Virus record (IMG/VR): IMGVR_UViG_2872152978_000002
Direction: 5' to 3' (one strand)
Source of the DNA: a virus
Taxonomy: Duplodnaviria; Heunggongvirae; Uroviricota; Caudoviricetes
Length of the DNA stretch: 35,535 bases
Part shown: one piece after another, positions 2,230-28,748 of the stretch
How the letters are laid out: each line of letters opens with the position of its first letter
Position numbering within the stretch: the stretch's first letter is position 1
The notes under the pieces: generated by a model
What the model saw: only the letters and a program-made list of their open reading frames with translations
The model's database searches: none
What the model was told of the DNA's origin: nothing
Program-made: the position numbers and the translations under genes

Positions 2230-4677
2230 TTAACCGTCATGCATCATGCTGGCACGGGCGCGCGCACGTTTATCCCGCTCGTATTTTTCGAGCGCATCCT
2301 GTAACTGGCGGTCAGGCTGTGTCCCCGGCGCAGTACCACCCGTCAGGCTGATGTGATATTCGTTTTTACTCTGGTCCACATAAGAGCGGCCAGCCGGTGC
2401 CGTAACCGGCTGATAAGCCTGATAGCCTGCATAAGAGCTGGTCGCCGGAATATAACCACCGGTGCCATACGTGGCGGCATTAGTCCTTGCGGCGGTCTGG
2501 TCAAGTGTGTCTGACTCTTTGTTAATAACACCGAGTTTTTCCAGTACCCAGTCAATACCACTGCGCAGTTTGTTGAACGCATTAAGCGGCAGCATCAACG
2601 CGTCAGCCAGTGCCTGCCCGAACATGACGCCCGTGTCACGGCAACGGTTCAGGGTGTCCTGTGTGGCTTTAACCGGGGCAATCAGGTTTTTAAACCACTG
2701 CCACGCGGCCTGTAACTTTTCGCCCAGCCAGTCAAACACCGGCTTAAGTGGCGTGAACAGTTCCCCCACCGGCGCAAATGCCGCTTTCAGCCCTTCCACC
2801 ACACCGCCAAAGAATGCGCTGACAGGCTCCCAGTATTTACGGATAAGCAACGCCCCGGCGACAATGGCGGCCACCACGGCCACAACCGGCCAGCTAATCG
2901 CTCCAATGGCGGTCATAACAGCACTGCCAACCGTCGTGAAGATTGCCCCCATTGCGCCTGCTGCCGCGATGATGGCATTGATGCCGGTGATAACCGGCCA
3001 GGCTACGAGGCCAATGGCACCGATGACACCAATCATTGCCAGTGCACCACCGACAATGATGCCGATGGTTGACGCCAGTGATTTGTTTTTCTGGATCCAG
3101 CCGTCGAGTTTTAACACATACTTTGTGGCCGTCTGCGTGAGCTTACGCAGTGCGCCTTCCTGCTGGTCAAACAGGTCAGTCCCCACCGCCTCATAAGCGG
3201 ACTGAAACTCCTTAAAGTCACCGCCGAGGTTGTCCTGCATGATATTTACCAGCTCTGCGGTCTTTCCGTCTGAGGCTTTAAACGCAGCGGTCAGTTTGTC
3301 CAGCTTTCCGGTTGAGGCGGCAGTCATCAGCACGGCGGCGGCTGAACTGGCCTCCTCCCCGAAAATGGTTTTCATGTATTCAGCCTGCTGGGCAGTACCG
3401 AGCCGGTTTTTCTCAAAACTGGCCTGCATTTCTTTCAGAATGGTAAATACTGGTCGGGTGTTTCCCTTACTGTCTGAGGTTTTCACACCAAGCTCTTTGA
3501 GTGCATCCCATGCTTTTCCCGTCGGTGCCTGCAGGCGGCTTAACACGGCACGGCTTCCCGTTCCCGCCATTGAGCCTGTGATTTTTGCATCATGCAGCGC
3601 CCCGACCATTGCGGCGGTTTCTTCAATGCTGACACCGGCATTTTTTGCCACAGGTGCGGCATAGGTCAGCGCATCGCTCATGCCGTCAAAATCGGCGGCG
3701 GTTTTGTTCATCGTCATGGAGAGAACATCCCCGATATGAGCGACCTTATCGTTTGAAAGCTGAAAGGCGGATTTCATCCCCATCAGCAGGGCGGCGTTTT
3801 CTTCCATCGTGCGACGGTTCGCCAGCGCCATATTCAGCGTGACCGGCGTTGCCGCCTGAATGGCATCAACATCCCCACCGGCTTTCGCAATAATAATCTG
3901 CGCACCAGCTGCATCATCTGCCGAGGCTGCGGTATTGTCGCCGAGCTGACGCGCCTGCTTGCGTAGTGCAGCCATTTCGGCGGAGTCTTTTACCACTCCG
4001 AGCACGGCCTGCAATTCTGAGTTTTTCTGCGCAAACTCATAACCGGGCATCAGCAGCTTAACTCCGGCCATCGTTCCCGCCGCCGCAATCCCCACACCGG
4101 CAGCGCCCACCGAGGCCATATTTCCGGCCAGTTCCTTTCCGGCCTGATAACGCTGTTTTACTGCGTTAAGTTTTGCCTGTTGTGCACTGACACGCGCCAG
4201 CGCGTCGCGCTGACGGTTAAGCTGTGCGGTGGTTTCACTGATACGGTTTTTCAGTCCCTGCTCATCATGTGCAAGATTGCGGGTATTAATTCCCACAGCG
4301 GCCAGTTCCCGCTGCTGGCGTTTAACGGAATCTGTCAGGCGGTTATATTTCGCCTGTAAGTCCTCCGCCGCACGCTTTGCGGATTCCAGCACTTTCGCCT
4401 GAGCACGGGTCGGACGTTCGGTGTTTTTAAACTGTGTGGCAAGGGCTTCGGCCTCCTGCCGTGCCTTTTCAAGTGCATGACCAGTCACGGCGAGCTGTGC
4501 ACTGGTCTTGCGGAATCCCTCAATACGGGATGCCTGACCGTTCAGCTCGCGCAGTGATTTTTGTGTTTCCCGGATATCCCCCGACAGCGATTTGCTCGCT
4601 GTGCGGATGGATTTAAACGGGCGGGATGCCTGGTCAACAGCCCTGAGCAATACCTGTAATTTTACATTGTTACTCAT
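2230..4677 (-). CDS. T: Tail tape measure protein T, 815 aa
   Basis: 815-aa Ala/Gly-rich coiled-coil protein with a hydrophobic central segment, directly downstream of E/E'; same length as P2 gpT. Confidence 0.9.
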   Translation of the reverse strand: MSNNVKLQVLLRAVDQASRPFKSIRTASKSLSGDIRETQKSLRELNGQASRIEGFRKTSAQLAVTGHALEKARQEAEALATQFKNTERPTRAQAKVLESAKRAAEDLQAKYNRLTDSVKRQQRELAAVGINTRNLAHDEQGLKNRISETTAQLNRQRDALARVSAQQAKLNAVKQRYQAGKELAGNMASVGAAGVGIAAAGTMAGVKLLMPGYEFAQKNSELQAVLGVVKDSAEMAALRKQARQLGDNTAASADDAAGAQIIIAKAGGDVDAIQAATPVTLNMALANRRTMEENAALLMGMKSAFQLSNDKVAHIGDVLSMTMNKTAADFDGMSDALTYAAPVAKNAGVSIEETAAMVGALHDAKITGSMAGTGSRAVLSRLQAPTGKAWDALKELGVKTSDSKGNTRPVFTILKEMQASFEKNRLGTAQQAEYMKTIFGEEASSAAAVLMTAASTGKLDKLTAAFKASDGKTAELVNIMQDNLGGDFKEFQSAYEAVGTDLFDQQEGALRKLTQTATKYVLKLDGWIQKNKSLASTIGIIVGGALAMIGVIGAIGLVAWPVITGINAIIAAAGAMGAIFTTVGSAVMTAIGAISWPVVAVVAAIVAGALLIRKYWEPVSAFFGGVVEGLKAAFAPVGELFTPLKPVFDWLGEKLQAAWQWFKNLIAPVKATQDTLNRCRDTGVMFGQALADALMLPLNAFNKLRSGIDWVLEKLGVINKESDTLDQTAARTNAATYGTGGYIPATSSYAGYQAYQPVTAPAGRSYVDQSKNEYHISLTGGTAPGTQPDRQLQDALEKYERDKRARARASMMHDG

Positions 4678-5097
4678 TCGTGTTTCCGCTTCGCCGGAGC
4701 GCCTTTTCGCGCCATGTGATGAGTTCGGTCAGGCTCATGGGATACAGTTCTGATGGCGGCCAGTGAAATATCACTGCCACATCCGCCATCAGGTCATCGA
4801 CCGAGAGATTTTTCGGAAACGTCACTGCACCGAGTTCGGCGACAAAAAACCGACCACCTTACCGGCCAGCGCCACAAGGTCAGGCAGTTCCAGCGCGGCG
4901 ACTTCCTGCTCGGTCAGCATCGGTGCCGTCATGCGCGGCAGCACCTTAATCAGTGCATCGACTTCAGAGTTCGCGACCGCAGCCAGACTGACACCGCGCA
5001 GCGTCCCGGCACTGGGTTTCATCAGCGTGACCTGTTCGATGACCTGCTCACCACGCTTGACCGGATTGTCCAGGGTAATCACATTTTCTTTGTTCAT
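4670..5097 (-). CDS. E': Tail assembly chaperone E+E' (programmed -1 frameshift product)
   Basis: Slippery heptamer G-TTT-TTT-G on the minus strand (plus 4843..4849). The -1 frame continues ...GFFVAELGAVTFPKNLSVDDLMADVAVIFHWPPSELYPMSLTELITWREK..., matching P2 E+E', and stops at 4670, overlapping the T start. Confidence 0.65.
4822..5097 (-). CDS. E: Tail assembly chaperone E, 91 aa
   Basis: MNKENVITLDNPVKRGEQVIEQV... matches P2 gpE; ends ...VVGFLSPNSVQ. Confidence 0.88.
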   Translation of the reverse strand: MNKENVITLDNPVKRGEQVIEQVTLMKPSAGTLRGVSLAAVANSEVDALIKVLPRMTAPMLTEQEVAALELPDLVALAGKVVGFLSPNSVQ

Positions 5098-5154
5098 GGT
5101 TTTCTCACTTCTGAATCGGGGGTTAACCGGTCAGCCTGGCTGACCGGATGAAAA

Positions 5155-5673
5155 TCACAGGCCGATATTGCGGCGGTGTTGCTCCAGCCGGTCGACGCCG
5201 TTCACCTTCTCAATCATGTTGATGGTGTCGATTTCGACCAGCTCCTTACCGTCCATCGTCAGCCGGAAATAGGTGCAGACCACGGAGATTTTCGACTCGG
5301 TGTCTTCTCCCTGTTTACCCTCGCCGGTGTCGATTTCTTTCTGACGTCCACGCATGACCACCTCGACGGCCACCGTTTCGCCGGTATCGTCGCGCTGGTA
5401 AGAGCCTGCAAAACGAATCGGCACGGCATCCACACCGGTTGCGGCGTAAAGCTCCCAGATAACCGAATCCGGGAAGCCCCCGAGCGACCACTCCATTGAC
5501 AGCGCATCGTCATCAAGGCCGAGGTCTACCGGTGCGCTGCCGTTCATCCCCGCACCTCGATAGTTTTCGAGCTTACGGGTCAGTTTTGGCAGCGTGACGG
5601 ACTTTGCAACGCCCTGATAGCTGTAGCCGTTCAGAAAGACGTTCATTAACTTGAGTTTGCGCGGCATTGCCAT
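5155..5673 (-). CDS. FII: Tail tube protein FII, 172 aa
   Basis: 172-aa ORF between FI and E; P2 gpFII length and position. Confidence 0.88.
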   Translation of the reverse strand: MAMPRKLKLMNVFLNGYSYQGVAKSVTLPKLTRKLENYRGAGMNGSAPVDLGLDDDALSMEWSLGGFPDSVIWELYAATGVDAVPIRFAGSYQRDDTGETVAVEVVMRGRQKEIDTGEGKQGEDTESKISVVCTYFRLTMDGKELVEIDTINMIEKVNGVDRLEQHRRNIGL

Positions 5674-5685
5674 CGGTCAGGCTCC

Positions 5686-6876
5686 TTAATTGCTGTTAAC
5701 CGAGGTGACCAGATTTGCCAGGTATTTATCGGTGATACGCTGGCGCAGGGTCAGGTTTTCAAGAGGAGGCACCGGGGTATAGTCGTAGTCGATATACAGT
5801 TTTCCGGCCTTGAGGGTTTCCGCATCGTTGGATTCTTCGCTAAACCAGCAGGTCGCATCCACGATATAGCCGTTTGTTTTCAGCTCACGGAATTTGGCAT
5901 TGATGCCGTCAACGATGTCACGAATCAGCGTTGCGGTGATGGGCTTGTCCACCGCCCACATGTGCGCCTCAGCCATCGTGTCGGCCAGTACCTGTGCGGT
6001 GCGGGTGTAGTTTTCAAAGAGGAACAGCGGGTCATCAGAGCAGGTACGGTTACCCCAGAAGCGGAAACCGTCACGGCGAATCAGTGTTGTGACGCCTGAC
6101 TCGTTAAGCAGGTCAGCATCGGTGCCGGACTCCTGCAAATCCCAGAATACAGATGCGCTGATGCCGGTAACACCGTTCACCCCGACGTTGGACAGCGTTT
6201 TATGCCAGCCCTGCTCCTGGTCGATTTTGGCACGCAGACCCAGCGCACGGGCGGTAGCATACGCGGTGGCGGTGGTACTGGTGACCGTATCCCATGCGAG
6301 GAAATCCGGCCAGATGACCATCAGCTCACGCTGGCTGAAATTCTGGCGGTAAGCTTTCACCTCGGAAATGGTTTTACAGCCCCATGCGCTGATATACCCG
6401 AAAGCGCGCAACTTCTGACAGACTGATGCCAGTGCAACAGCCACCTCTTTGGTATCCAGTCCCGGTACGCCGAGAATACGCGGTTTAACACCGGTTACCG
6501 ACTCCGCCGCCAGCAGGGCTTTCAGTCCGGTGTACTGACCGTTTTCGTCGGTGGTGCCGATGATATTGGAAACGGTCTGCGCGAGTTTCGTTTCTTCGTC
6601 GTCGCCGGTGCCGTCTTCCACGCGCACAACAACGGTGACCGGTTTTGACTGGTCAGCGATGGCCTGCAACGATGCCGCCAGCGTGCCTTTTTTACCGGCC
6701 TTTGCAATTGCGCTCTGCACATTGGTAATCAGCACCGGTTTATTGAGGGGGAAGGTTTCCGCATCCGCATCGCTGGCCGTGCAGACCATGCCGACAATGG
6801 CGGTGGATACGGTTGAAATGACGCGGGTGCCGTCGTTAATCTCCAGCACCTGCACGCCGTGATGATAGTCACTCAT
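5686..6876 (-). CDS. FI: Contractile tail sheath protein FI, 396 aa
   Basis: 396-aa ORF, P2 gpFI length and position, first gene of the FI-FII-E-T-U-D block. Confidence 0.9.
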   Translation of the reverse strand: MSDYHHGVQVLEINDGTRVISTVSTAIVGMVCTASDADAETFPLNKPVLITNVQSAIAKAGKKGTLAASLQAIADQSKPVTVVVRVEDGTGDDEETKLAQTVSNIIGTTDENGQYTGLKALLAAESVTGVKPRILGVPGLDTKEVAVALASVCQKLRAFGYISAWGCKTISEVKAYRQNFSQRELMVIWPDFLAWDTVTSTTATAYATARALGLRAKIDQEQGWHKTLSNVGVNGVTGISASVFWDLQESGTDADLLNESGVTTLIRRDGFRFWGNRTCSDDPLFLFENYTRTAQVLADTMAEAHMWAVDKPITATLIRDIVDGINAKFRELKTNGYIVDATCWFSEESNDAETLKAGKLYIDYDYTPVPPLENLTLRQRITDKYLANLVTSVNSN

Positions 6877-6971
6877 CCGTTTAACTCCGTGGTTAATGGG
6901 TGCAACTATTTTCTGTTGTACAGAGCATGAGACGCTATTTGATCTGTCTGGTCAGTGGATGAAACAACAGA

Positions 6972-6999
6972 TACAGAAAAGGCGGGCAATTCGCCCGCC
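6972..6999 (-). terminator. Hairpin with T-run (minus strand) upstream of FI, left edge of the cargo island
   Basis: GGCGGGC-AATTC-GCCCGCC stem-loop at 6981..6999, followed on the minus strand by TTTTCTGT. Probably the backbone terminator that separates the tail-fibre operon region from the FI late promoter. Confidence 0.4.
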
Positions 7000-7063
7000 T
7001 GTCCTAGTTTGTACTCACTCATTTTCCGACTGACAATTTACATAGCCAAAACGCTATCAAATC

Positions 7064-7096
7064 TGACAGTCTGCTTTGAGCGAAAAGCAGACTGTC
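7064..7096. repeat. Perfect 14-bp-stem inverted repeat upstream of the HNH gene
   Basis: TGACAGTCTGCTTT-GAGCG-AAAGCAGACTGTCA; no clear T-run on either side, so it could be an operator or RNA structure rather than a terminator. A degenerate copy lies at 8077..8115. Confidence 0.7.
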
Positions 7097-7212
7097 ACGC
7101 GTTGAAGTTAATTGTATTACTTAGATAAACACTATCATTTTCCTGACGTTAAGTTGTATCTTTGATAGGATTAAAAAACGTATAGATAGCTTATGCTACT
7201 GAGGGAATAAAA

Positions 7213-8022
7213 ATGACGAAAATTAGTGAACGATGGAAGCACAATGGCATTACTGAAGGTTATTGCAATATTTGTGGGAAATATGGCTTGCTCACAAAAG
7301 ATCATGTTCCTCCAAAGTGCGCCATAACCTTAGGCCCTGTTTTGCAGAAAACAGTTAGCGAATTTTTTGGTATTCAGGAACCAGTTAAACCATTAAATGC
7401 TAAAAATGGCTCTTATTTCAGAACCATTTGCAGCCACTGTAACAATAAGGTATTAGGTGGGCTCGATGTTGCAATTGAAAATGTAACAAAGTCCTTTAAA
7501 GAACAGTTAAGTCGATATATGAATGGTATGAATGTATATCCATTCATTAGAATACCTTTTGATAGCATATCTTTCACTAAGGCTATGATTGGGCACGTGC
7601 TATCAGCAACTTCAGTTGAAGATTGTAAAAAAGAACCCGTAGATAGCCCCTTCTATACACCTTTAAAGGATTATGTTTTGGGTAAAAATTCAAGTTTTGA
7701 GGAAACTCATGATATTTACTACTGGTTTTACCCACACAGAATGCACATATCCGCTCAAAGTGTAGCATTTATGAACGAAGGACATGTGGCATTTATTTGT
7801 GCTTTACATTTTTTTCCTATCGGTTTTATTATCACAATGAAAAATGAAGGAACATACCCTGCCCACTCTACAAAATTAGAACTTGAAGATAAATTCCTTA
7901 CATTTAATATGACCTCTATAAATTATGAGTATACGACATTTCCATTTGTAAATCTTAAGGGAAACCAAATGTATGCGATAAGCAACGGTCATACTTGTGT
8001 GAGTTATCCAATAATTAAGTGA
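7213..8022 (+). CDS. HNH-motif nuclease-like protein with an unknown C-terminal domain, 269 aa
   Basis: N-terminus carries C-x2-C (CNIC), DHVPPK, a conserved Asn and C-x2-C-N-x-K (CSHCNNK), the spacing typical of zinc-bound HNH endonucleases. GAGGGA Shine-Dalgarno before the ATG. About 35% GC, unlike the P2 backbone. C-terminal ~190 aa has no motif I recognise. Confidence 0.75.
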   Translation: MTKISERWKHNGITEGYCNICGKYGLLTKDHVPPKCAITLGPVLQKTVSEFFGIQEPVKPLNAKNGSYFRTICSHCNNKVLGGLDVAIENVTKSFKEQLSRYMNGMNVYPFIRIPFDSISFTKAMIGHVLSATSVEDCKKEPVDSPFYTPLKDYVLGKNSSFEETHDIYYWFYPHRMHISAQSVAFMNEGHVAFICALHFFPIGFIITMKNEGTYPAHSTKLELEDKFLTFNMTSINYEYTTFPFVNLKGNQMYAISNGHTCVSYPIIK

Positions 8023-8162
8023 CGGCTAAATCATACAATCTACGCATGTTCACTTTCTACATATACCATCTATAATGTCCGCTGTTGGCACAAAGCAGAC
8101 GCCCACTCTCACGCGAATGCTTTGCCCTTGACTTGCCAACAACCGTATCGCTTGCTCCGCAA

Positions 8163-9440
8163 CTATGGTTTTTTATTAGAATCTTCGCCACTAAATAAAT
8201 TATAATAAATTGATTTTATTAGATATCTGTCAGAATCTATATGGTCAGCACGAGTAGCATGCTCTAATGTTTCAAATGCTAGGGTTTGTGCGGCTTCAGC
8301 AAAAATTCCAGGCCAACCCTTACTCAGCATCGACAGTCCTTTAAGGACCCTTATCTGAATTTCCCTCATACTGGCACCATCGCGCGCAACAGGTGAGAAA
8401 AAGTCTTCAAGTAGATCGTTATTCTGAAGTGGTGCAACATGTACAGAAGGATATTTCACTTCTATTTCATCAGATTTATTCTGCGCGTAAGCGGAAAGTA
8501 TACGTACACCTCTGCCAATGACATCAATGGCGGTTCCAGGATCGTTCACTGCGGGGGAAAGGGCTCGGCAGGCTATTTCGGCCATGACGCTAAGACAAAA
8601 TCGGGGGTCCTGAGCAAATGAACGTACATCCGAGACAATAATCGTCTCAAGTAAATCGGTGCTGATTGATGACTCCTGGCCCTGACTCAGGTACAAAACT
8701 GGCGTGGACGGATGTATGAAACTGCCCGGCTGCGCCACGAGGTATACATGACGGGGATCATTGGTCAGCAGCTTGCTGAGTTTCACCATATCAACATATT
8801 CAACATAGCCAATCTTTTTCGGATAAACTGCAACCGTTCCTTTCGGCTGTTCATTGTTCTCAAGCCATGGATATCCGCCGAGACAGGGATTTCTTGCTCT
8901 CGCAATAAATGTTTCGATGGCCGCCTGTTCTACTTTTGCCGTTGTCTCACCAACCCTCCCCAGAGAGGTCAAATGCTGTATCCAGCGAAGCAATGTGATG
9001 AGGATTAAGGCAATGACAACCAGTGTTACAATGAATAAAATGACTCTCCCCCTTTCTCCATAAGCTCCCATATTGAGGGCAATAATCCCTACCAGACTGA
9101 AGAGAAAAGAACCGATGAAGGTGGCCAGTACATTTTGTGTGGTGACGTCTTCAACAACTAAACGAGTAGCTCTGGGAGTCACATTAGTAGTGGCTGAACC
9201 GTAGGCTGTGACCATGATGCTCAGCGAAAATGTGGTCACTGCCAGCATACTCGATGCCAGTATGTTCAGAATGTTATCGACTGCTTCCGCACCAACCTTC
9301 ACGGAAACCGACTCAGGTATCATTGATTTAAAAAGAATTGATAAAAGGGCCGTTATTATTGCGACAATTGCGAATAACGTTGCCCTGAACCATAGTTTTT
9401 TAAATGTCTGCTTCAGCATCCATTTCCAGCGTGAAATCAT
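8163..9440 (-). CDS. Membrane protein with four N-terminal TM helices and a ~250-aa soluble domain (DUF2254-like, from memory)
   Basis: Four hydrophobic segments in the first ~160 aa. Start placed at the Met preceded by GAGGGA (the track ORF starts 15 nt upstream, inside the terminator T-run). Family assignment is from recollection only. Confidence 0.55.
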   Translation of the reverse strand: MISRWKWMLKQTFKKLWFRATLFAIVAIITALLSILFKSMIPESVSVKVGAEAVDNILNILASSMLAVTTFSLSIMVTAYGSATTNVTPRATRLVVEDVTTQNVLATFIGSFLFSLVGIIALNMGAYGERGRVILFIVTLVVIALILITLLRWIQHLTSLGRVGETTAKVEQAAIETFIARARNPCLGGYPWLENNEQPKGTVAVYPKKIGYVEYVDMVKLSKLLTNDPRHVYLVAQPGSFIHPSTPVLYLSQGQESSISTDLLETIIVSDVRSFAQDPRFCLSVMAEIACRALSPAVNDPGTAIDVIGRGVRILSAYAQNKSDEIEVKYPSVHVAPLQNNDLLEDFFSPVARDGASMREIQIRVLKGLSMLSKGWPGIFAEAAQTLAFETLEHATRADHIDSDRYLIKSIYYNLFSGEDSNKKP

Positions 9441-9461
9441 TCTGCATTCCCTCATATTGCA

Positions 9462-9492
9462 GCCGGGATAAATAAATGCCGCCTCTGTGGCG
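9462..9492 (-). terminator. Intrinsic terminator between the BCCT transporter gene and the downstream membrane protein gene
   Basis: ATGCCGCC-TCTGT-GGCGGCAT hairpin followed on the minus strand by TTTATTTATC, 12 nt after the transporter stop codon. Confidence 0.55.
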
Positions 9493-9503
9493 GCATGTTG
9501 CTG

Positions 9504-11507
9504 TTAACGAACCAGATGCAGGAAGTGCAGGTGTTTTTCGTACTGGTCCAGTATGTCATTAATCAGCTGTTCCTGATTCCAGCCCATTACATCATAATTT
9601 TGGCCGCCCTCTTTGAGATAGACTTCAGCGCGATAATATCGATGTTGTTCACTCTGCTGCTCATCATTATCCAGCGCAGCGAGCGCGAAGGTCGGTGAGT
9701 TATACCCGCGAAGCCTCACTTCATATATATAATTCAGCTCGTTGCCCAAATCGACTTCAAGGCGAATACGATCCTCGGCGGCGTCACTGATGTGGCTTAT
9801 CGTTCCCTGCTTGTTAAGTTCCTCCTGAACCAGCGTCATGGCGGGTTGGATAATGTCGTCCATAAAACGTTTCACAAGAGAGCGCTTCGGCAAATACGCG
9901 ATATTGCGTAACCTTCTCTGCCAGGGAATTGGGTTACGTGCAGCCGTAGGAGCAATAGTCGCCATGCTAAGGCTTTCACGCTTGGTCAAATCCCGACGCA
10001 GGGCTTTTAACAGTCCGTATATGGATATTAATAAGATAACTGAGAAGGGCAATGCACTCGCTATCGTTACGGTTTGCAACGCACTCAGCCCCCCTGCGAT
10101 CAGCAGGGCAATAGCAACAACGCCCATGAGCAATGCCCAGAAAATTCGCTGCCAGACGGGCGTGTTTGCCACCCCACCTGATGCCAGAGTATCCACAACC
10201 ATTGCCCCCGAATCAGCAGACGTTACAAAGAAGACGATGACCATCGCCATTGCAATGAATGACAGCACGGAAGAGAACGGGAAATGCTCCAGGAAATTAA
10301 ACAGGGCAAGCGCAACATCCTGCTGAACGGTATTGGCGAGGTCAGTGGCGCCCTGGTTCATGATGAGATAGATGGCGCTGTTTCCAAACACCGTCATCCA
10401 CATGAGCGTAAAGCCGGCGGGAACAAACAACACGCCAGTCACGAACTCACGAATTGTCCTGCCGCGGGAAACGCGTGCAATGAACATACCTACAAACGGC
10501 GACCATGAAAGCCACCATCCCCAGTATAATAATGTCCAGCCCCCCAGCCAGTTGCTCGACTTGGGTTCATACGCGTAAAGGTTGAACGTTTTACTCACCA
10601 GTTCCGACAGATAACCACCCGTATTTTCCACAAATGACTTCAGCAGAAGCACAGTGGGACCCAGGCACAAGACCAGCGCCAGGAGCAACACCGCCAGGCC
10701 CAGATTAAGCTCAGACAGGATGCGTATTCCCTTGTCCAGGCCGGACACCACCGAAATCGTCGCTAACCCCGTGATGACCACGATCAAAATGACCTGTACC
10801 GTTTCATTGATGGGCACGCCGAAAAGATGGTTCAAACCGGCATTCACCTGCAATACACCGTAACCCAGCGATGTTGCAACGCCAAAGACAGTGCCTATCA
10901 CGGCGAAGATATCAACCGCGTGGCCTATAGGCCCGTAAATGCGATCGCCGATAATGGGATAGAGCGCAGAACGCAGCGTTAAAGGCAGACCGTGACGGTA
11001 ACTGAAAAAGGCCAGAATCAGCGCCACGATGGCATAAATTGCCCATGCGTGCAGACCCCAGTGGAAGAACGTCAGGCGCATGGCTTCCTTCGCTGCCGCA
11101 ACGGTCTCTGGAGTGCCGACAGGTGGCGAAAGATAATGCATCACAGGTTCGGCAACGCCAAAGAACATCAGGCCGATCCCCATCCCTGCCGAAAAAAGCA
11201 TCGCGAACCAGGAGTGGTAGCTGAAATCAGGCTGCGCATGGTCTGGGCCCAGCTTTATATCACCGTAACGTGAGAGTCCAAGGAACGTGACGCTCAGTAA
11301 AATCAGGGCCACAGCAAGTATGTAGAACCAGCTGGCATTCGTGAAGATTTGTTGCTGAAGTAGTTTAAAATTTTTGTCGGCGACATCCGGGAATACGGCG
11401 GCAAAGGCGACAAGAAGGAAAATTAGCAAAGCAGATGTAAAGAATACCGCTTTGTTAACCTGGCTTGTAGACTTCTTTGGGGTTGTATCATTTTCACTCA
11501 TAATCAT
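9504..11507 (-). CDS. BCCT-family transporter, BetT-like (choline/betaine type), 667 aa
   Basis: BCCT signature GWTLLYWGWWLSWSPFVGMFIARVSRGRTIREF; overall collinear with E. coli BetT as I recall it, including the C-terminal ...DILDQYEKHLHFLHL tail. Confidence 0.85.
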   Translation of the reverse strand: MIMSENDTTPKKSTSQVNKAVFFTSALLIFLLVAFAAVFPDVADKNFKLLQQQIFTNASWFYILAVALILLSVTFLGLSRYGDIKLGPDHAQPDFSYHSWFAMLFSAGMGIGLMFFGVAEPVMHYLSPPVGTPETVAAAKEAMRLTFFHWGLHAWAIYAIVALILAFFSYRHGLPLTLRSALYPIIGDRIYGPIGHAVDIFAVIGTVFGVATSLGYGVLQVNAGLNHLFGVPINETVQVILIVVITGLATISVVSGLDKGIRILSELNLGLAVLLLALVLCLGPTVLLLKSFVENTGGYLSELVSKTFNLYAYEPKSSNWLGGWTLLYWGWWLSWSPFVGMFIARVSRGRTIREFVTGVLFVPAGFTLMWMTVFGNSAIYLIMNQGATDLANTVQQDVALALFNFLEHFPFSSVLSFIAMAMVIVFFVTSADSGAMVVDTLASGGVANTPVWQRIFWALLMGVVAIALLIAGGLSALQTVTIASALPFSVILLISIYGLLKALRRDLTKRESLSMATIAPTAARNPIPWQRRLRNIAYLPKRSLVKRFMDDIIQPAMTLVQEELNKQGTISHISDAAEDRIRLEVDLGNELNYIYEVRLRGYNSPTFALAALDNDEQQSEQHRYYRAEVYLKEGGQNYDVMGWNQEQLINDILDQYEKHLHFLHLVR

Positions 11508-11822
11508 TTATTCCATTAATTAAATCCGCACTGGATAGAAGGTACTACCTCTCACAGAGTAGCAAAGTTCAACTGGCTATGCGGGATTAATCGGAATGCA
11601 TGGTGGAATGAGTGCCGATACAAATCATCCTATATTCTAAGGAGTTTTAAGTTACTCAGCCTGCCAATTACTGGGGCATTTAATTTGTATGATCTGTATC
11701 AAAGCTGGGATATAAGTTAAGTGAAGTATATTAGGCACGAATTACCAGCGTCTGCTCTTGGCACAGAGCGGACTGTCAGATTAGACTTTACTCTGTGCTA
11801 TAGGTATGTCAGCTCATACAAC

Positions 11823-12350
11823 TTATTGCGGCATTTCCGGCCATTCAGGATTTGCAGGATCCACACGACTGACCAGAACGCTGTAGCGTTCCCATGCTTC
11901 CAGTCGGCTGCGCTCCTCATCTGTTGCCATATTCAGCCTGACAGCGCGCTCCAGCGGCAAAATCACGGATTCAGCTTCGGAAAGTAAAGTTGCCTTTTGT
12001 GATTCTGCCAGTTGCTGCTGTTCGTCTGCCGTATAAATCCGCTTAATCACGGCACCATCCTTAAACATCCATTTACCTGAGTCATCAGCACGTCGGTTGG
12101 CGGTAATATCAGGAACCTCGACAACGCTAAAACCTTCAGGGTTAAGCGTTGAAGCATCTCTGGTGATGCCGACAATTATATTATTCTCGTCGTAAACAAT
12201 CTTTATCGTGTCTTCCTGAAAATTACTTACTTCCTCATACCAGTTTTTTCCGTCTTCAGACCATAACCAGATAACATCAAAATTTTTTGTCAGTTGATAT
12301 TGGGCAACAGTTTTGGGATTACCCGCAGTAATATTTTTTAAATGCTGCAT
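11823..12350 (-). CDS. G: Tail fibre assembly protein G, 175 aa
   Basis: 175-aa ORF directly downstream of H; P2 gpG length and position. Confidence 0.88.
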
Positions 12351-12353
12351 AAA

Positions 12354-14444
12354 TTACACCTGTGCGACGTTATACCATGTGCCATTAATGTATTTTTGTA
12401 TTGGTCTGAATACTGCCGGATCATCGCCATCAACTTCGCCGACAATGCCAAGCCCTGTAATTACATGGCCTGATTTCTCATACATCACGCCTTTTTGCAT
12501 GGTCTGAACAACACGCGTACCCAGGCGAACATCTTTCACATAGCGGGAATCAAAATTTCCGTAATCTGATGGGTTAACACGTCCAGTAACACTCAGGCCA
12601 TGCCCCATTGACACTCCGCCATTGGCGTTATTGATAGTCAGCGGTCTTAAACCGTTCCATGTTCCAAATTTATCGCCAGAGGCCGTCAGCATTAAATATG
12701 TGCTGCCGCCATCATTCCTGATAAAGAATCCATAATTGCCATAAGCAATGCGCAGACCATTAGCACTGAGCGATGTAATTTCACCTCTTGAACGAAGACC
12801 ATAAGCAGAGCTGAGTGATAATTCTTCCTGAGCATCAGTATTACCTGTCGCCCAGCGAATTACCCCGCCCTGTACTGTTTCATGCCAGATAGTGTCTCCT
12901 TCTCCACCACGAAACTTTCTGAGATATTTTTTGCCGCCTCTGGTGCCGGAACATAAGGCCGTAGACATATAGGCATTCTGGCTTCCACTATCCTGATTAA
13001 TAGTTCCAGACATAGAATCGCCGTAACGGTTCCAGTCACGCCGCCAGCCAGGAGCATAGTTGTCCCCGTGGTTAATATAAGTAAATTGCGCGCTTGTAGC
13101 GCCCCCACCGCTTGATGTTGTTGGTGTGGTAATACGAATAGTCATTGCAGACTTTATGCCCATTACCTCAATAACAGCGCCAGCAAGATGAATATTGCCA
13201 CAGCCAGTATCCGTAATGATTTTGTTATTTGCATATGACCAGGAGCCTTTGCACATCCAGTACGGATGATTAAATGCACCACGGGAATCCAGCCATTCAA
13301 TAAACTGAGCGGTTGTCCAGTTTCCGGCTTCAGTGCTCAAAGCGCCGCTATAAGCACGACAGGCACCGATATTTTTCGTGAAGGTATCCTTTCCCGGAAT
13401 ATCCGCACCGTTCTGATCTTTCTGAAGACGTTTTTCAGCATTGTCATAGGCAGACTTCACCGCCTTTGGCGTTGCAGCCTGCGTTTCAGAATCACTGTTG
13501 GTGGCGCTACTGAGCTGGACAAGACCTTTTCGCGCCGTGGTGGCATCCTGTGCAGTGTATTTCCCGTTAGCAAGGTCATATGCTGTCTTAACCGCCTTTG
13601 GCGTTGCCGCAAGCGTTTCAGAATCGCTGTTGGTGGCGCTACTGAGCTGAACAAGGCCTTTTCGCGCTGTTGTGGCATCCTGTGCAGTGTATTTCCCGTT
13701 AGCAAGGTCATATGCTGCCTTTACCGCTTTCGGCGTTGCGGCGAGCGTTTCAGACGTGCTGTTAGTCGCACTACTGAGCTGAACAAGGCCTTTTCGCGCG
13801 GTGGTAGCGTCCTGTGCGGTATATTTCCCGTTAGCAAGGTCATATGCGGCCTTAACCGCTTTCGGAGTTGCAGCCAGTGTTTCAGACGTGCTGTTGGTCG
13901 CACTGCTTAACTGAGTAAAACCTTTTGCGGTCAGCGAGGCGTCAGGGTGACGTCGTGACTGTTCATGTTCTGCAATTTTGTCATCAACGTAATCCTGCGT
14001 TGCCATCACCGTTGTGGTGTCAATGGTCAGCTCCACTGAGGCCACACTGCTGACGATGATGACCATGCGGCAGGTCTGCGAACGCCCTGAGCCTTCGGCA
14101 AGGGCTGGCTTATAACTTTCGGCCATGTTCGCCACGGCAATTAGCGTTCCCGCATCATCGTACAGGCCAAGTTCACGCATCCAGAAACCGCCCACCTCCG
14201 GCGGAATAACCAGCTCTGCGATAATATAATTACTGTTTCGTTTGTCCTGGCTGATTTTGTTCAGCGCATGTCGCCAGACTTCATGGATAAGCCCGGTCTG
14301 TCCGGCATCCGGGACAGGCAATTTACCACCGCCATCCCCGACGGCCATCGTGGTAATGTTGACCTTCCGCCCTCCCGGTGCGGTTGCCGCTGCCAGCTTT
14401 GCTGCACCGGCAGTGGTGATAACGGTTTTGAATTTTGTGCTCAT
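12354..14444 (-). CDS. H: Tail fibre protein H, 696 aa
   Basis: P2 gpH position between I and G; contains four tandem ~40-aa repeats (DATTARKGLVQLSSATNS.SET.AATPKAVK.AYDLANGKYTAQ) and a divergent C-terminal domain. Confidence 0.88.
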   Translation of the reverse strand: MSTKFKTVITTAGAAKLAAATAPGGRKVNITTMAVGDGGGKLPVPDAGQTGLIHEVWRHALNKISQDKRNSNYIIAELVIPPEVGGFWMRELGLYDDAGTLIAVANMAESYKPALAEGSGRSQTCRMVIIVSSVASVELTIDTTTVMATQDYVDDKIAEHEQSRRHPDASLTAKGFTQLSSATNSTSETLAATPKAVKAAYDLANGKYTAQDATTARKGLVQLSSATNSTSETLAATPKAVKAAYDLANGKYTAQDATTARKGLVQLSSATNSDSETLAATPKAVKTAYDLANGKYTAQDATTARKGLVQLSSATNSDSETQAATPKAVKSAYDNAEKRLQKDQNGADIPGKDTFTKNIGACRAYSGALSTEAGNWTTAQFIEWLDSRGAFNHPYWMCKGSWSYANNKIITDTGCGNIHLAGAVIEVMGIKSAMTIRITTPTTSSGGGATSAQFTYINHGDNYAPGWRRDWNRYGDSMSGTINQDSGSQNAYMSTALCSGTRGGKKYLRKFRGGEGDTIWHETVQGGVIRWATGNTDAQEELSLSSAYGLRSRGEITSLSANGLRIAYGNYGFFIRNDGGSTYLMLTASGDKFGTWNGLRPLTINNANGGVSMGHGLSVTGRVNPSDYGNFDSRYVKDVRLGTRVVQTMQKGVMYEKSGHVITGLGIVGEVDGDDPAVFRPIQKYINGTWYNVAQV
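13440..13920. repeat. Four tandem ~120-bp in-frame repeats inside tail fibre gene H
   Basis: Near-identical ~120-bp units visible in the nucleotide sequence; they also generate the spurious antisense ORFs at 13266..13910, 13457..13711 and 13721..13903. Confidence 0.75.
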
Positions 14445-16238: not shown

Positions 16239-16863
16239 AGAGGACTCCCGGTTGTGCCGCCGCTGTCGCCGGGGTGTTTATGGGTATGCAGTACCTTCCC
16301 GTTTGATGAAAGTTCACCGCCGGTGTGTTCAATGTTGCCGCGCATCGTCCCGCCCTTCTGCACTTCCAGCGTGCCGGTAATCAGCTTGTTGGTGCAGACC
16401 ACCTCCGGTGTGTCCAGGGTGACGCGGGTTGATGCTTTCACCATGACCACCGGCACCGTGGCAGTAACAGAATCAGAAGCCGTCACGCTGGCCGTTTTAA
16501 TTCCGCTTACCGTGAGTGCACTGGTTTCAGGTTCATACTCAATCACCGCCCCGTCAGGGAAACGGATATGCAGGGCATCCGCCGACGCCGACGGCGCGGG
16601 TTATCGCCGGAATAAATCCCCGGCAGAACGAACGCCGTGTCGAGTTCACCGCCCACGGCCAGAATCAGCACCTGTTCCCCCACGGAAGGTGCCCACCATG
16701 TGCGCGAACGACCGGCGCGATGGGTCAGCCACTGAAGCCAGTCGGTGCACATGCCGCCGGTCTGCACACGGCAGCGACCGGCATTAAGGTCGGTTTCGAC
16801 GATAATGCCAGTGCGAATCATATTGCGTATAAAGCGAAGAATTTCATTGTATTGTGCATTCAT
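16235..16863 (-). pseudogene. V: Baseplate spike gene V, split by a frameshift (or sequencing error)
   Basis: N-terminal part (MNAQYNEILRFIRNMIRTGIIVETDLNAGRCRVQTGG...SGDN) and C-terminal part (...ADALHIRFPDGAVIEYEPETSALTVSG...GSPL) lie in different frames. They join if 2 nt are removed or 1 added near 16596..16600 in a GCGCCG-rich run; the joined length is about that of P2 gpV (211 aa). Confidence 0.7.
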
Positions 16864-16949
16864 TCGATAATAATGATTCTGTACAATCTCGAAGTAAATC
16901 ACACCACGATTTCTGGTGCACAGAACAACAAGGGACAACAAAATCCATT

Positions 16950-18023
16950 ATGAGTACTTACTTTTTCTCGTCAGAAACAATGAAAGAATTGTTCAAAGAT
17001 TATCTGGTCTTTTTGAACACGCTGACTCCCGGCACAAACTTTGAATCAAGCAGAAACAAAATAATTGCTCAAGCAATAAACTTCATTTCCGAAAACCCTG
17101 AAGATTGGGACAAAAAATCCCAGTACAACATTGCTATGATTGGCGACACCTTTAAAAGTTTCTTAAGAGAAAAGGGAGAAGATAACAACAGCATCAACCT
17201 TATATTCACTTGCTTTTTTAGATTTATCATTGAACCAAGCATTCTCTCTCCGGAAATAGAGTCTCACTTTTCACCACTAAGAACCATCAAGGATTTTGCT
17301 CTGTATAACTATAATGAATTCGATGAGCGGAGCAGAGCACAGATAGACTTTTCTCTTAGAGAACTGCCATTAGCAATGGTTAAAGAAGTTTTAAGCTCCA
17401 GCAATGTTGACACATATAAAAAATACATTGATAGTTTAAACGAAGGGCGTCAATTTTTCGAAAAGTGCGACTCCTTCTTAAAGGAGCAACATGCCAAAAT
17501 AGAGTCAATCAAAGAGTCATTAAAAGGGTATGAGGTCGCATTTAATTTTGTTGGATTGTTTGAAGGCTTTAATTCACTTGGCAAAAAGAAAGAAAGTGAA
17601 ATCATGCTATCAAGAATAATTCTTATCATCTTGGCTATAATCATTCCCTCCCCGCTGATATACTATGGAATGCATAAATTACCAGCTCTCGAAACGACAA
17701 ATGCTGCCACATATTTTATGTCAGCACTACCTTTTGCATCAGTTACATTGATTTTCATGTATTACTTTAGAGTTGTACTGCTAAATCATATATCGTTACG
17801 AACTCAGATTATGCAAATAGAACTCAGAAAGAGCCTTTGTCAGTTCATTCAGAGTTATAGCGACTATTCCTCAGAGATAAGGAAAAACAATCCGGAAGCG
17901 CTTTCAAAATTCGAAGACGTAGTATTTTCAAACATCATGCTATCCGATGATAAGATACCATCTACATTTGATGGCATTGAGCAAATAGCATCGTTAATCA
18001 ATTCATTAAAAAATGGAAAGTAA
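16950..18023 (+). CDS. Hypothetical 2-TM membrane protein (~357 aa) at the P2 orf30 moron position
   Basis: AT-rich ORF divergent from V. Mostly helical N-terminal ~240 aa, then two hydrophobic helices (IILIILAIIIPSPLIYYG and YFMSALPFASVTLIFMYYFRVVLL) and a ~90-aa tail. Followed by an intrinsic terminator. Start codon uncertain (weak Shine-Dalgarno). Confidence 0.6.
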   Translation: MSTYFFSSETMKELFKDYLVFLNTLTPGTNFESSRNKIIAQAINFISENPEDWDKKSQYNIAMIGDTFKSFLREKGEDNNSINLIFTCFFRFIIEPSILSPEIESHFSPLRTIKDFALYNYNEFDERSRAQIDFSLRELPLAMVKEVLSSSNVDTYKKYIDSLNEGRQFFEKCDSFLKEQHAKIESIKESLKGYEVAFNFVGLFEGFNSLGKKKESEIMLSRIILIILAIIIPSPLIYYGMHKLPALETTNAATYFMSALPFASVTLIFMYYFRVVLLNHISLRTQIMQIELRKSLCQFIQSYSDYSSEIRKNNPEALSKFEDVVFSNIMLSDDKIPSTFDGIEQIASLINSLKNGK

Positions 18024-27931: not shown

Positions 27932-28645
27932 TTACACCAAACCCGGGGAATAAGGGCCTCGTGCTAATTCAGGATTAGTCCACATTAAGCAAACTGGGTT
28001 ATCTGAAGTTATAAATGACCCTTGCCCATCAGATATGGTCATAAGTGACCAGTTGCGTTGATGCAACAACTTGGTGATAACAGGTACACATTTCATTTCC
28101 ATATCTATCATGAACTCTCTGATTACATTGATTTCGAAATTATCCCCATCCACAAAATTTTTAATTTTTTCGTAAGCGAGATCATATGGCAAAGACTCAC
28201 CCATTTCTTTCTCATAAGCTAATTTGCAATCGTCCCAACGCTCAGCCGAACTAACTGAGGATTTCATGATAAACTTTGCTATTTGTTTCAATGGAGATGA
28301 TAAATGTTCTCGCTGAGCAGGCGTACGTATTGCCAATAAGGAAATAAACTCCAGAATAACATCTTTGGTTTCGCCTGAAAACTCGCCCCCCTCCTCAAGT
28401 TTTCTTAAATGAGTAGCGACACTGCCTTCAAACTCTGCAAGAGAACTCTCGAGATAGTTTGGGTCAACTCCATCCAATTCTAATCGGTTGAAATCTCTAA
28501 CCCCCCCGACATTGCGAGTATTACTCTCAAAGGTTTTGCGCTCCTTTAAATCTATTACAGTTAATTTTGATTTTTTCCCCCCATTACTTGTAAACCCTTT
28601 CAAATAACATTGGGATAAAAAATGATGATGCCTTGCAACACTCAT
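27932..28645 (-). CDS. DUF4238-like protein at the P2 old/tin moron position, probably truncated by a frameshift
   Basis: Starts MSVARHHHFLSQCYLKGF and contains SDNPV, which I recall as DUF4238 hallmarks. GGAG Shine-Dalgarno 6 nt before the chosen ATG. AT-rich. The reading frame of the downstream 66-aa ORF (27717..27917) is open from 27967, so one indel in the CCCCGGG run would give a ~305-aa product. Confidence 0.65.
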   Translation of the reverse strand: MSVARHHHFLSQCYLKGFTSNGGKKSKLTVIDLKERKTFESNTRNVGGVRDFNRLELDGVDPNYLESSLAEFEGSVATHLRKLEEGGEFSGETKDVILEFISLLAIRTPAQREHLSSPLKQIAKFIMKSSVSSAERWDDCKLAYEKEMGESLPYDLAYEKIKNFVDGDNFEINVIREFMIDMEMKCVPVITKLLHQRNWSLMTISDGQGSFITSDNPVCLMWTNPELARGPYSPGLV

Positions 28646-28748
28646 ACTCAGCTCCGTTATGGCTATAATCGCATAAATAATAAGCACTTATATTGCAATC
28701 ATCTAGTTAAATACACAATATTTATGACTCCGAAATTTCATTAAATCA

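Follow-up and report, generated by a model that had tools for sequence, protein, structure and literature searches.

In the 35,535 nt IMG/VR virus record IMGVR_UViG_2872152978_000002, referred to below as the window, the whole sequence corresponds to a P2-like prophage on the minus strand, and three non-P2 genes are found in the interval between the late genes G and FI (6877-11822). This interval is a two-cassette array in the already known exchange slot of the P2 Z region. It probably consists of two serial cassettes delimited by core sites of two types, g and t, and moved by a 200 aa tyrosine recombinase: cassette 1 is a moron encoding an HNH-like protein (gene A), whilst cassette 2 is a betU module containing a gene for a DUF2254 protein (D) and one for a BCCT transporter (B). 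The slot in the window would accordingly be read, from the FI side, as g, A, t, DUF2254-betU, t, with the following features:

7069-7092, plus strand: core site g, GTCTGCTTT-GAGCGA-AAAGCAGAC, on the FI side
7093-8076, plus strand: interior of cassette 1, of the g-to-t type, approximately 1.0 kb with a GC content of around 0.35
7213-8022, plus strand: gene A, 269 aa, with the signature GYCNICG...DHVPP...CSHCNN
8077-8100, plus strand: core site t, GTCCGCTGT-TGGCAC-AAAGCAGAC, at the junction of cassettes 1 and 2
8163-9455, minus strand: gene D, encoding a DUF2254 protein of 430 aa (425 aa from the RefSeq start)
9476-9496, both strands: GC-rich, terminator-like hairpin in the 48 nt gap between betU and the DUF2254 gene
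9504-11507, minus strand: gene B, encoding a BetU-type BCCT transporter of 667 aa
11750-11773, plus strand: core site t, GTCTGCTCT-TGGCAC-AGAGCGGAC, on the G side

Core sites and the P2 Z slot

The sites are named after their spacers, g for GAGCGA and t for TGGCAC. All three are imperfect palindromes of 24 bp, which together form the strongest direct-repeat family of the island, and each is composed of a 9 nt inverted arm, a 6 nt asymmetric spacer and a second 9 nt arm, the layout of a tyrosine recombinase core site. The pattern GTCYGCTNT-N6-ANAGCRGAC has exactly three matches in the window, compared with an expectation of zero from 100 shuffles, and these coincide exactly with the three junctions, namely that of backbone with A, that of A with D/B, and that of D/B with backbone. 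At the g site, the left arm and the outer flank aaatctgaca are P2 backbone, this half also being present in P2, Wphi, vB_EcoM-12474III and P2-EC58; the right arm belongs to cassette 1, and is also found in an IncFII plasmid (L001) and a Rac-like lambdoid prophage (L002). The left half of the t site at 8077-8100 is, in phage pro147, joined directly to the right half-site of the P2 backbone. At the t site on the G side, the left arm belongs to cassette 2, and the right arm and its outer flank tgtcagatta are P2 backbone, identical in P2, Wphi, pro147, P2-EC58 and 80 IMG/VR loci.

An initial annotation of this sequence had recognised non-P2 cargo at the Z/fun position, which is borne out by the three open reading frames (ORFs) found between the sheath and G genes, and had taken a hairpin as the limit of the island on the FI side. 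A terminator-like hairpin is indeed present in the P2 backbone between the cassette slot and FI (6980-7000, minus strand, GGCGGGCgaattGCCCGCC followed by TTTTCT), but the real boundary is the core site at 7069-7092. The sequence from 6877 to 7083 is P2 backbone, having 92-95% identity to P2, Wphi and other P2-like phages, and the truly foreign DNA spans approximately 7084-11758. At 7001-8000, corresponding to gene A, the GC content is 0.34-0.37, against 0.55-0.57 in the backbone. A scan of 6800-11900 against Rfam found no match to an RNA element. Four complete E. coli chromosome records contain the whole island with 100% identity, the host strains including S10, Res13-Lact-ER01-35 and d1-58, and it is also present in one P2-like contig of IMG/VR (L073); hence it is not an assembly artefact. 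A megablast search additionally found positions ~7069-11773 at 99.9% identity in around 30 further E. coli records.

Both the location between G and FI and the conserved inverted-repeat half-sites of the backbone are as found in P2, Wphi, 12474III, P2-EC58 and pro147. In the first four of these, unrelated cargo lies between the same half-sites, the one next to FI reading aaatctgaca-GTCTGCTTT-GAGCGA and the one next to G reading TGGCAC-AGAGCGGAC-tgtcagatta. When IMG/VR was scanned with the t backbone half-site, 80 loci were detected, 58 of which had both ends of the slot; these contained 32 types of cargo, ranging from 0.8 to 5.9 kb, and nine were multi-site arrays. This diversity agrees with the earlier description of the Z position as a hotspot for swapping genes. 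The P2 Z/fun region was reportedly recognised as an exchangeable moron locus by Nilsson, Karlsson and Haggard-Ljungquist in 2004, with site-specific exchange being proposed. Where the Z-locus work is summarised in a review, exchange is ascribed to site-specific recombination (PMC8987985), and the g and t cores fall within the left and right inverted repeats annotated in GenBank entry AJ512683.

The island in the window shares with the P2 Z/fun locus its position, its backbone inverted repeats and the nature of its cargo, which is foreign, of low GC content and also found in enterobacterial plasmids and chromosomes; it differs in that the cargo is an array of two cassettes, A and betU/DUF2254, rather than fun. 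Keyword searches of the literature returned no description of such a cassette and recombinase system, the 2004 Z-locus paper itself having been beyond our reach. Relative to secondary sources, what is added here are the resolved core sites, their two spacer classes, a cassette-borne 200 aa recombinase and the breadth of the family to which this belongs. The old, vague 'site-specific exchange at the P2 Z locus' can be replaced by a concrete and testable model, comprising 24 bp cores with two classes of spacer, a candidate recombinase, and loci representing the states before and after insertion.

Independence and reshuffling of the cassettes

The three genes had originally been regarded as one cassette and as a candidate defence module, in a combination not recognised as a described system. 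A single accessory or defence system, for instance one in which a membrane sensor or transporter triggers an HNH nuclease, would fit with the genes adjoining one another in a known anti-phage hotspot, with the occurrence of the three-gene stretch at 99.9-100% identity in 34 E. coli genomes, plasmids included, and with the superficial resemblance of an HNH-like motif beside membrane proteins to an effector-sensor pair. However, the t site at 8077-8100 splits A from D and B, A is encoded on the opposite strand, and the two parts are distributed separately. Gene A was detected in 141 of 5426 E. coli genomes, of which only the 34 have the block of A with D and B (at least 80% of the island query); it is found without D and B in approximately 100 others, in pro147 and in lambdoid prophages, including L005. 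Conversely, D and B together occur in 1,531 plasmid records, as against 52 for A, and in L002 two other cassettes lie between A and the D/B pair. Nor is the gene combination an undescribed one, as the DUF2254 and BCCT genes are the betU pair of Tn6062, at 98% protein identity, and by themselves confer osmotolerance (PMC3139670). None of the three proteins matched any family in PADLOC-DB v2. The distribution data largely refute a joint system of this type, which we regard as highly improbable; of the three island genes, only A remains a plausible candidate for defence or exclusion.

The arrangement of the cassettes was compared between two related contexts, L001 and L002. Both hold two additional genes, encoding a 200 aa 'site-specific integrase' (I) and a 476 aa hypothetical protein (H, not to be confused with the tail fibre gene of the same letter), and the order of blocks is as follows, DB standing for the pair of D and B:

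L001, IncFII plasmid: g H t I g A t DB t
L002, Rac-like lambdoid prophage: g A t I g H t DB t

Pairwise BLAST comparison of these loci resolved four blocks with 99.4-99.9% identity (H, 2079 bp; I, 711 bp; A, 1025 bp; DB, 3701 bp), every one of which terminates within a core site. The blocks are permuted in order with their orientation kept, and no inversions were seen. The interior of cassette 1 is common to the window, L001 and L002 at 99.8-100% identity, and the limits of this shared segment likewise fall within core sites. In each junction site, the left arm tracks the block to its left and the right arm the block to its right; as the arms re-assort with their blocks, exchange occurs at the spacer.

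Two pairs of loci can be viewed as states before and after insertion. In pro147, the t site following A is joined to P2 backbone, whereas in the window A is followed by t, DB, t and P2 backbone; similarly, in the lambdoid prophage L005 the t site following A adjoins the prophage flank, whereas in L002 the series A, t, I, g, H, t, DB, t leads into the identical flank. Based on the hybrid half-sites and these paired states, cassette 2 would have been gained when a t-type circle inserted precisely at the t site of an A-bearing, pro147-like phage. The arrangements of L001 and L002 could be interconverted in two steps, with a circle of A, t and I first being excised between the two g sites, and then being reinserted via its t site at the junction of H and DB. 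We infer from these patterns that exchange proceeds through circles.

The 476 aa H protein is encoded on the minus strand in both loci (L001, 9352-10782; L002, 13795-15225), within a g-to-t cassette that accompanies the recombinase cassette in plasmids and the Rac-like prophage. It had no match in Pfam, NCBIfam or PADLOC, and only matched phrog_27609, which is of unknown function. Around 6 kb from the array of A, I, H and betU in L002 is the K+ transporter gene trkG (4805-6262), such that there are two osmoregulatory transporters in one prophage.

An origin of the island through homologous or illegitimate recombination, or through capture by an insertion sequence (IS), would make the palindromes mere terminators or backbone hairpins. 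The core sites can form hairpins, betU is flanked by IS1 in Tn6062, flanking P2 homology could allow exchange among co-resident P2-like phages, and the recombinase is a putative mover. We nevertheless consider this quite unlikely. The same half-sites bound identical cassettes, to the base, in P2, a Rac-like lambdoid prophage and an IncFII plasmid, the backbones of which have no flanking homology in common. Neither the permutation of cassettes in the absence of inversion, nor the exact re-assortment of half-sites at the 6 nt spacer, would be anticipated, and the island contains no IS element. Furthermore, sites are enriched beside a conserved tyrosine recombinase in the Enterobacterales, with 142 observed across 80 recombinase loci, compared to 41 in shuffled controls.

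A candidate cassette recombinase

The product of I is most likely the enzyme that moves the cassettes. This 200 aa protein has the accession WP_001752951. Its residues 35-184 match Pfam family PF00589 (Phage_integrase; E-value 1.1e-17, 64.8 bits against a cut-off of 27.1), and it also matches the integrase family phrog_216 (E-value 1e-31); it consists of essentially the catalytic domain only. Against models of Xer recombinases, integron integrases and FimB/E-type invertases it scores far under the cut-offs, reaching 53.6 bits relative to a cut-off of 220 for the XerA/integron-integrase model, and PADLOC has no family for the protein. Two known types of site were considered and rejected: XerCD/dif-like sites, because the core is unlike dif and the recombinase scores far under the cut-offs of the Xer models, and Rci shufflon sites, because no inversions were seen.

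A variant with 93% identity is present in 877 of the 5426 complete E. coli genomes (approximately 16%), mostly on the chromosome. In strain Nissle 1917 (L018, 6894-11185), it is found in an island with several g and t sites, one of which has the P2-type outer flank tgtcagatta. Relatives with 61-94% identity were identified among the Gamma- and Betaproteobacteria, where the genomes of at least 549 species contain one. Recombinase genes within arrays of sites were also noted in L111-L124. In the Enterobacterales, there are up to 10-11 g and t sites in the 20 kb around these genes, often in the form of doublets with 18 bp between a t and a g site, around 42 bp from start to start; these doublets resemble connector cassettes that are empty. 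Pseudomonas, Burkholderiales and marine Gammaproteobacteria retain the arms, with CGGCCA and GGGTCG as spacers. The recombinase gene itself travels as a t-to-g cassette, in IncFII plasmids, the Rac-like prophage and chromosomal islands, and would act in trans on arrays such as that in the window.

Tentatively, and although this is less likely than not, the g and t sites and the 200 aa recombinase may constitute a widespread and essentially uncharacterised integron-like cassette exchange system, with A as a new single-gene HNH-type anti-phage cargo of novel fold. In such a system, g-to-t cargo cassettes would alternate with t-to-g connectors, the latter being either the 42 bp doublet of t and g sites or the recombinase gene, and both fitness and defence genes would be shuttled among P2-like phages, lambdoid prophages, conjugative plasmids and chromosomal islands. 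The range would extend across the Gamma- and Betaproteobacteria, with the P2 Z region being one landing pad.

Similarities to integron cassettes (IntI/attC) include arrays of discrete cassettes in the same orientation between imperfectly palindromic sites, the putative use of a tyrosine recombinase as the mover, precise insertion and an order that can be reshuffled. However, the recombinase here is only 200 aa long, scores far under the integron-integrase and Xer cut-offs and is itself a cassette, and in place of attC hairpins there are short 9-6-9 cores with two classes of spacer. The cassettes also carry their own upstream regions and genes in either orientation (A on the plus strand, D and B on the minus strand), and no attI/Pc platform was seen; in the window, there is neither an IntI-type integrase nor any attI or attC, the sites being 24 bp cores. 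Another comparison is with the pdif modules of Acinetobacter plasmids, which depend on XerC and XerD and have short core sites of alternating type. These, too, are discrete modules common to unrelated replicons without flanking homology; they differ in that the g and t sites are not dif-like, in that a dedicated small recombinase accompanies the modules rather than chromosomal XerCD being used, and in that the hosts here include phages. If the recombinase works as proposed, it would account for the movement of defence and fitness genes among phages, plasmids and chromosomes without flanking homology, and would represent a compact natural tool for cassette exchange.

Cargo of the cassettes and other loci of the prophage

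Cassette 2 encodes what had been described as a BetT-like BCCT transporter and a membrane protein with four transmembrane segments, and both descriptions hold. B matches Pfam PF02028 (BCCT) with an E-value of 3.3e-199 over residues 21-506, covering positions 1-485 of the 485 in the profile, and exceeds the cut-offs of TIGR00842 (543.6 bits against 407.55) and of the NCBIfam BetT subfamily (751.8 bits against 695). It is because of this latter score that automatic names for B read 'BetT'; nevertheless, sequence comparison identifies it as an ortholog of BetU rather than BetT, as it has 98% identity over 664 aa to the BetU of Tn6062 and 42% to the BetT of E. coli K-12. D matches Pfam PF10011 (DUF2254) with an E-value of 1.6e-92, above the gathering score, and shares 98% identity with its DUF2254 counterpart in Tn6062, by inference SPAP0105. 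An AlphaFold 2 (AF2) model of D, with a predicted local distance difference test score (pLDDT) of 79, has four long N-terminal helices and a confident cytoplasmic domain; it gave no informative structural neighbour. The protein also matches phrog_27913 (386 aa, unknown function) with an E-value of 5.9e-275, hence at least one of the phage genomes behind PHROGs already carries a near-identical DUF2254 gene; when the island was searched by megablast against the INPHARED phages, none of the records matched contained the D/B part.

Of the plasmid records containing D and B, 1,266 are from Klebsiella, and the DNA identity is typically 93%, with the genes annotated as BetT or BetU and DUF2254. On an S. 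Typhi IncHI1 plasmid, the pair lies between copies of IS1, which is the arrangement of Tn6062. The module in the window has the same two genes as this transposon in the same order, with 98% identity for each protein and ~94.5% at the DNA level, the difference being that the pair is flanked by IS1 on an IncHI1 plasmid in one case and by t sites in a P2 prophage in the other. BetU is said to have been described by Ly et al. in 2004. It is betaine-specific, whereas BetT is choline-specific (PMC4411257). Holt et al. 2011 found that the two-gene fragment of Tn6062, carried on pACYC184, allowed S. Typhi to grow in 0.8 M NaCl (PMC3139670), and their published forward primer IS1056-03 matches the window at ~8172-8193.

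By analogy with this 98% identical allele, the BetU of the prophage would be a glycine-betaine/proline-betaine transporter with a role in uptake and osmoprotection. The island genes are presumed to be expressed in the lysogen, and a lysogen should gain betaine uptake and improved growth at high osmolarity. Cassette 2 would therefore represent lysogenic conversion for fitness, not defence. The hairpin at 9476-9496 hints that betU and the DUF2254 gene do not form a tight operon. The DUF2254 protein can be considered a co-travelling membrane protein; coupling to BetU was considered, given that the pair is kept together on plasmids, and is unproven in view of the limited synteny. A temperate P2-like phage can thus carry and transduce betU, a proven determinant of osmotolerance which the literature ties to urinary tract E. 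coli and to a successful multidrug-resistant lineage of typhoid plasmids.

Gene A, the sole gene of cassette 1, fits the initial description of an AT-rich, plus-strand gene with an HNH motif. It has 93 detectable homologues across the Gammaproteobacteria, which annotation pipelines name 'chaperonin' or 'metal-binding protein'. In an alignment of 55 homologues, extending down to 22% identity, residues C21, D30, H31, V32, P33, P34, C73, C76, N77, D85, H128, W171, F200 and P202 do not vary, and the conservation of C18 is 90% or more; together these include the zinc/catalytic signature CxxC...DH...CxxCN, of the Zn-ribbon/HNH-EndoVII type. The AF2 model (pLDDT 86, predicted template modelling score 0.88) has strands at 24-32 and 67-73 and a helix at 74-103, followed by a beta-rich C-terminal domain. 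No Pfam family matched at an E-value of 0.01 or below, and none in NCBIfam or PADLOC at threshold; the only PHROGs family matched, phrog_21495, is of unknown function. A permissive threshold gave HNH_5 with an E-value of 0.29 for A itself, and HNH_5 in 42 of the 55 relatives (best E-value 0.0023) and Endonuclease_7 in five, all under the gathering score. Searches of PDB sequences with both the single sequence and the family profile were without a match, and no solved structural relative was found.

The motif and topology suggest membership of the HNH superfamily, although they do not establish it. With the HNH/T4 endonuclease VII group (beta-beta-alpha-Me; McrA, Hpy99I), A shares the CxxC...DH...CxxC(N) motif, the predicted order of strand, strand and helix, and the sub-threshold HNH_5 and Endonuclease_7 matches of most of its relatives; it differs in having a 34-residue insert between the two strands and no Pfam HNH model at threshold, and in that its C-terminal 190 aa have no recognisable relative. 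Homologues are carried by a Vibrio inovirus prophage and by a Pseudomonas island that has serine recombinases on either side. In Plesiomonas, the region around the homologue also encodes AbiU2, PLD/NgoFVII and Shedu-type domains; in Serratia, the homologue is located where a P2-like remnant ends, and a further one, with 92% identity, lies between a t and a g site in an Erwinia array. The 269 aa ORF adjoining the recombinase gene in E. coli Nissle was considered as a further homologue, and was found by BLASTP to be unrelated. This distribution has the pattern of an accessory gene of mobile elements and fits with phage exclusion. Cassette 1 is an independent single-gene moron, in which a putative zinc-bound HNH/EndoVII-like nuclease module is fused to a novel beta-rich domain, with its product most likely being a nuclease-based phage-exclusion or abortive infection protein. 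In any case, A represents an unannotated family, predicted to be well folded, that is present on many kinds of mobile element.

It could alternatively be proposed that A is not a defence gene, and is instead a selfish or homing HNH endonuclease, or else an accessory factor of cassette recombination involved in directionality or nicking. The HNH/EndoVII-type motif, the position of A directly adjoining the recombinase cassette in both L001 and L002, and the homologue in the integrase-associated Erwinia array are all compatible with such functions, which we think unlikely on other grounds. A is bounded by sites like any other cargo, and is found without the recombinase in the window, pro147, L005, the Vibrio inovirus and the Pseudomonas island; conversely, the recombinase locus of Nissle has no homologue of A. 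No recombinase gene was detected in any of the 58 two-ended P2 slots of IMG/VR, and the additional domain of ~190 aa is atypical of homing HNH genes.

A number of observations weigh against the proposal of two mobile cassettes moved by the 200 aa recombinase and conferring a phenotype on the lysogen. The window contains no recombinase gene, hence its cassettes either need a copy acting in trans or are stranded, and the link between this enzyme and the sites is a putative one. A and H are both flanked by unlike spacers, g and t, such that simple excision at one type of site cannot move either alone. A promoter scan found sites to be no more numerous than in shuffled sequence. The allele whose osmotolerance phenotype was measured has 98% identity and was on a multicopy plasmid in S. 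Typhi, not in this prophage. Finally, the synteny of BCCT and DUF2254 genes is present in a Leclercia chromosome, with DUF2254 found alone in Serratia, Alcanivorax and Paraburkholderia; the linkage therefore appears to be shallow, and limited to close Enterobacteriaceae.

The P2-like late genes near the island are as follows:

2230-4677: tape measure
5155-5673: FII
5686-6876, minus strand: FI, tail sheath (Pfam Phage_sheath_1)
11823-12350, minus strand: G, tail fibre assembly (Pfam Caudo_TAP)
12354-14444, minus strand: H, tail fibre

Three further features of the prophage were found away from the island. A low-GC ORF of 251 aa (27932-28687, minus strand) lies in the old/tin 'TO' hotspot, beside the P2 gene A/GPA (28749-30962), and matches both PADLOC DUF4238-Pers (E-value 8.5e-168) and Pfam DUF4238; hence the prophage does carry a listed defence candidate, at a locus other than Z. 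In a patch with a GC content of 0.35-0.37 among the baseplate and tail genes, at roughly the variable position of P2 orf30, there is a 389 aa ORF (16854-18023, plus strand), on the opposite strand to the late genes, which has no match in Pfam or PADLOC. Within the tail fibre gene H, at ~13270-13900, the translation shows a unit of ~44 aa (…ATNSTSETLAATPKAVKAAYDLANGKYTAQDATTARKGLVQLSS…) that is repeated in tandem about four times.

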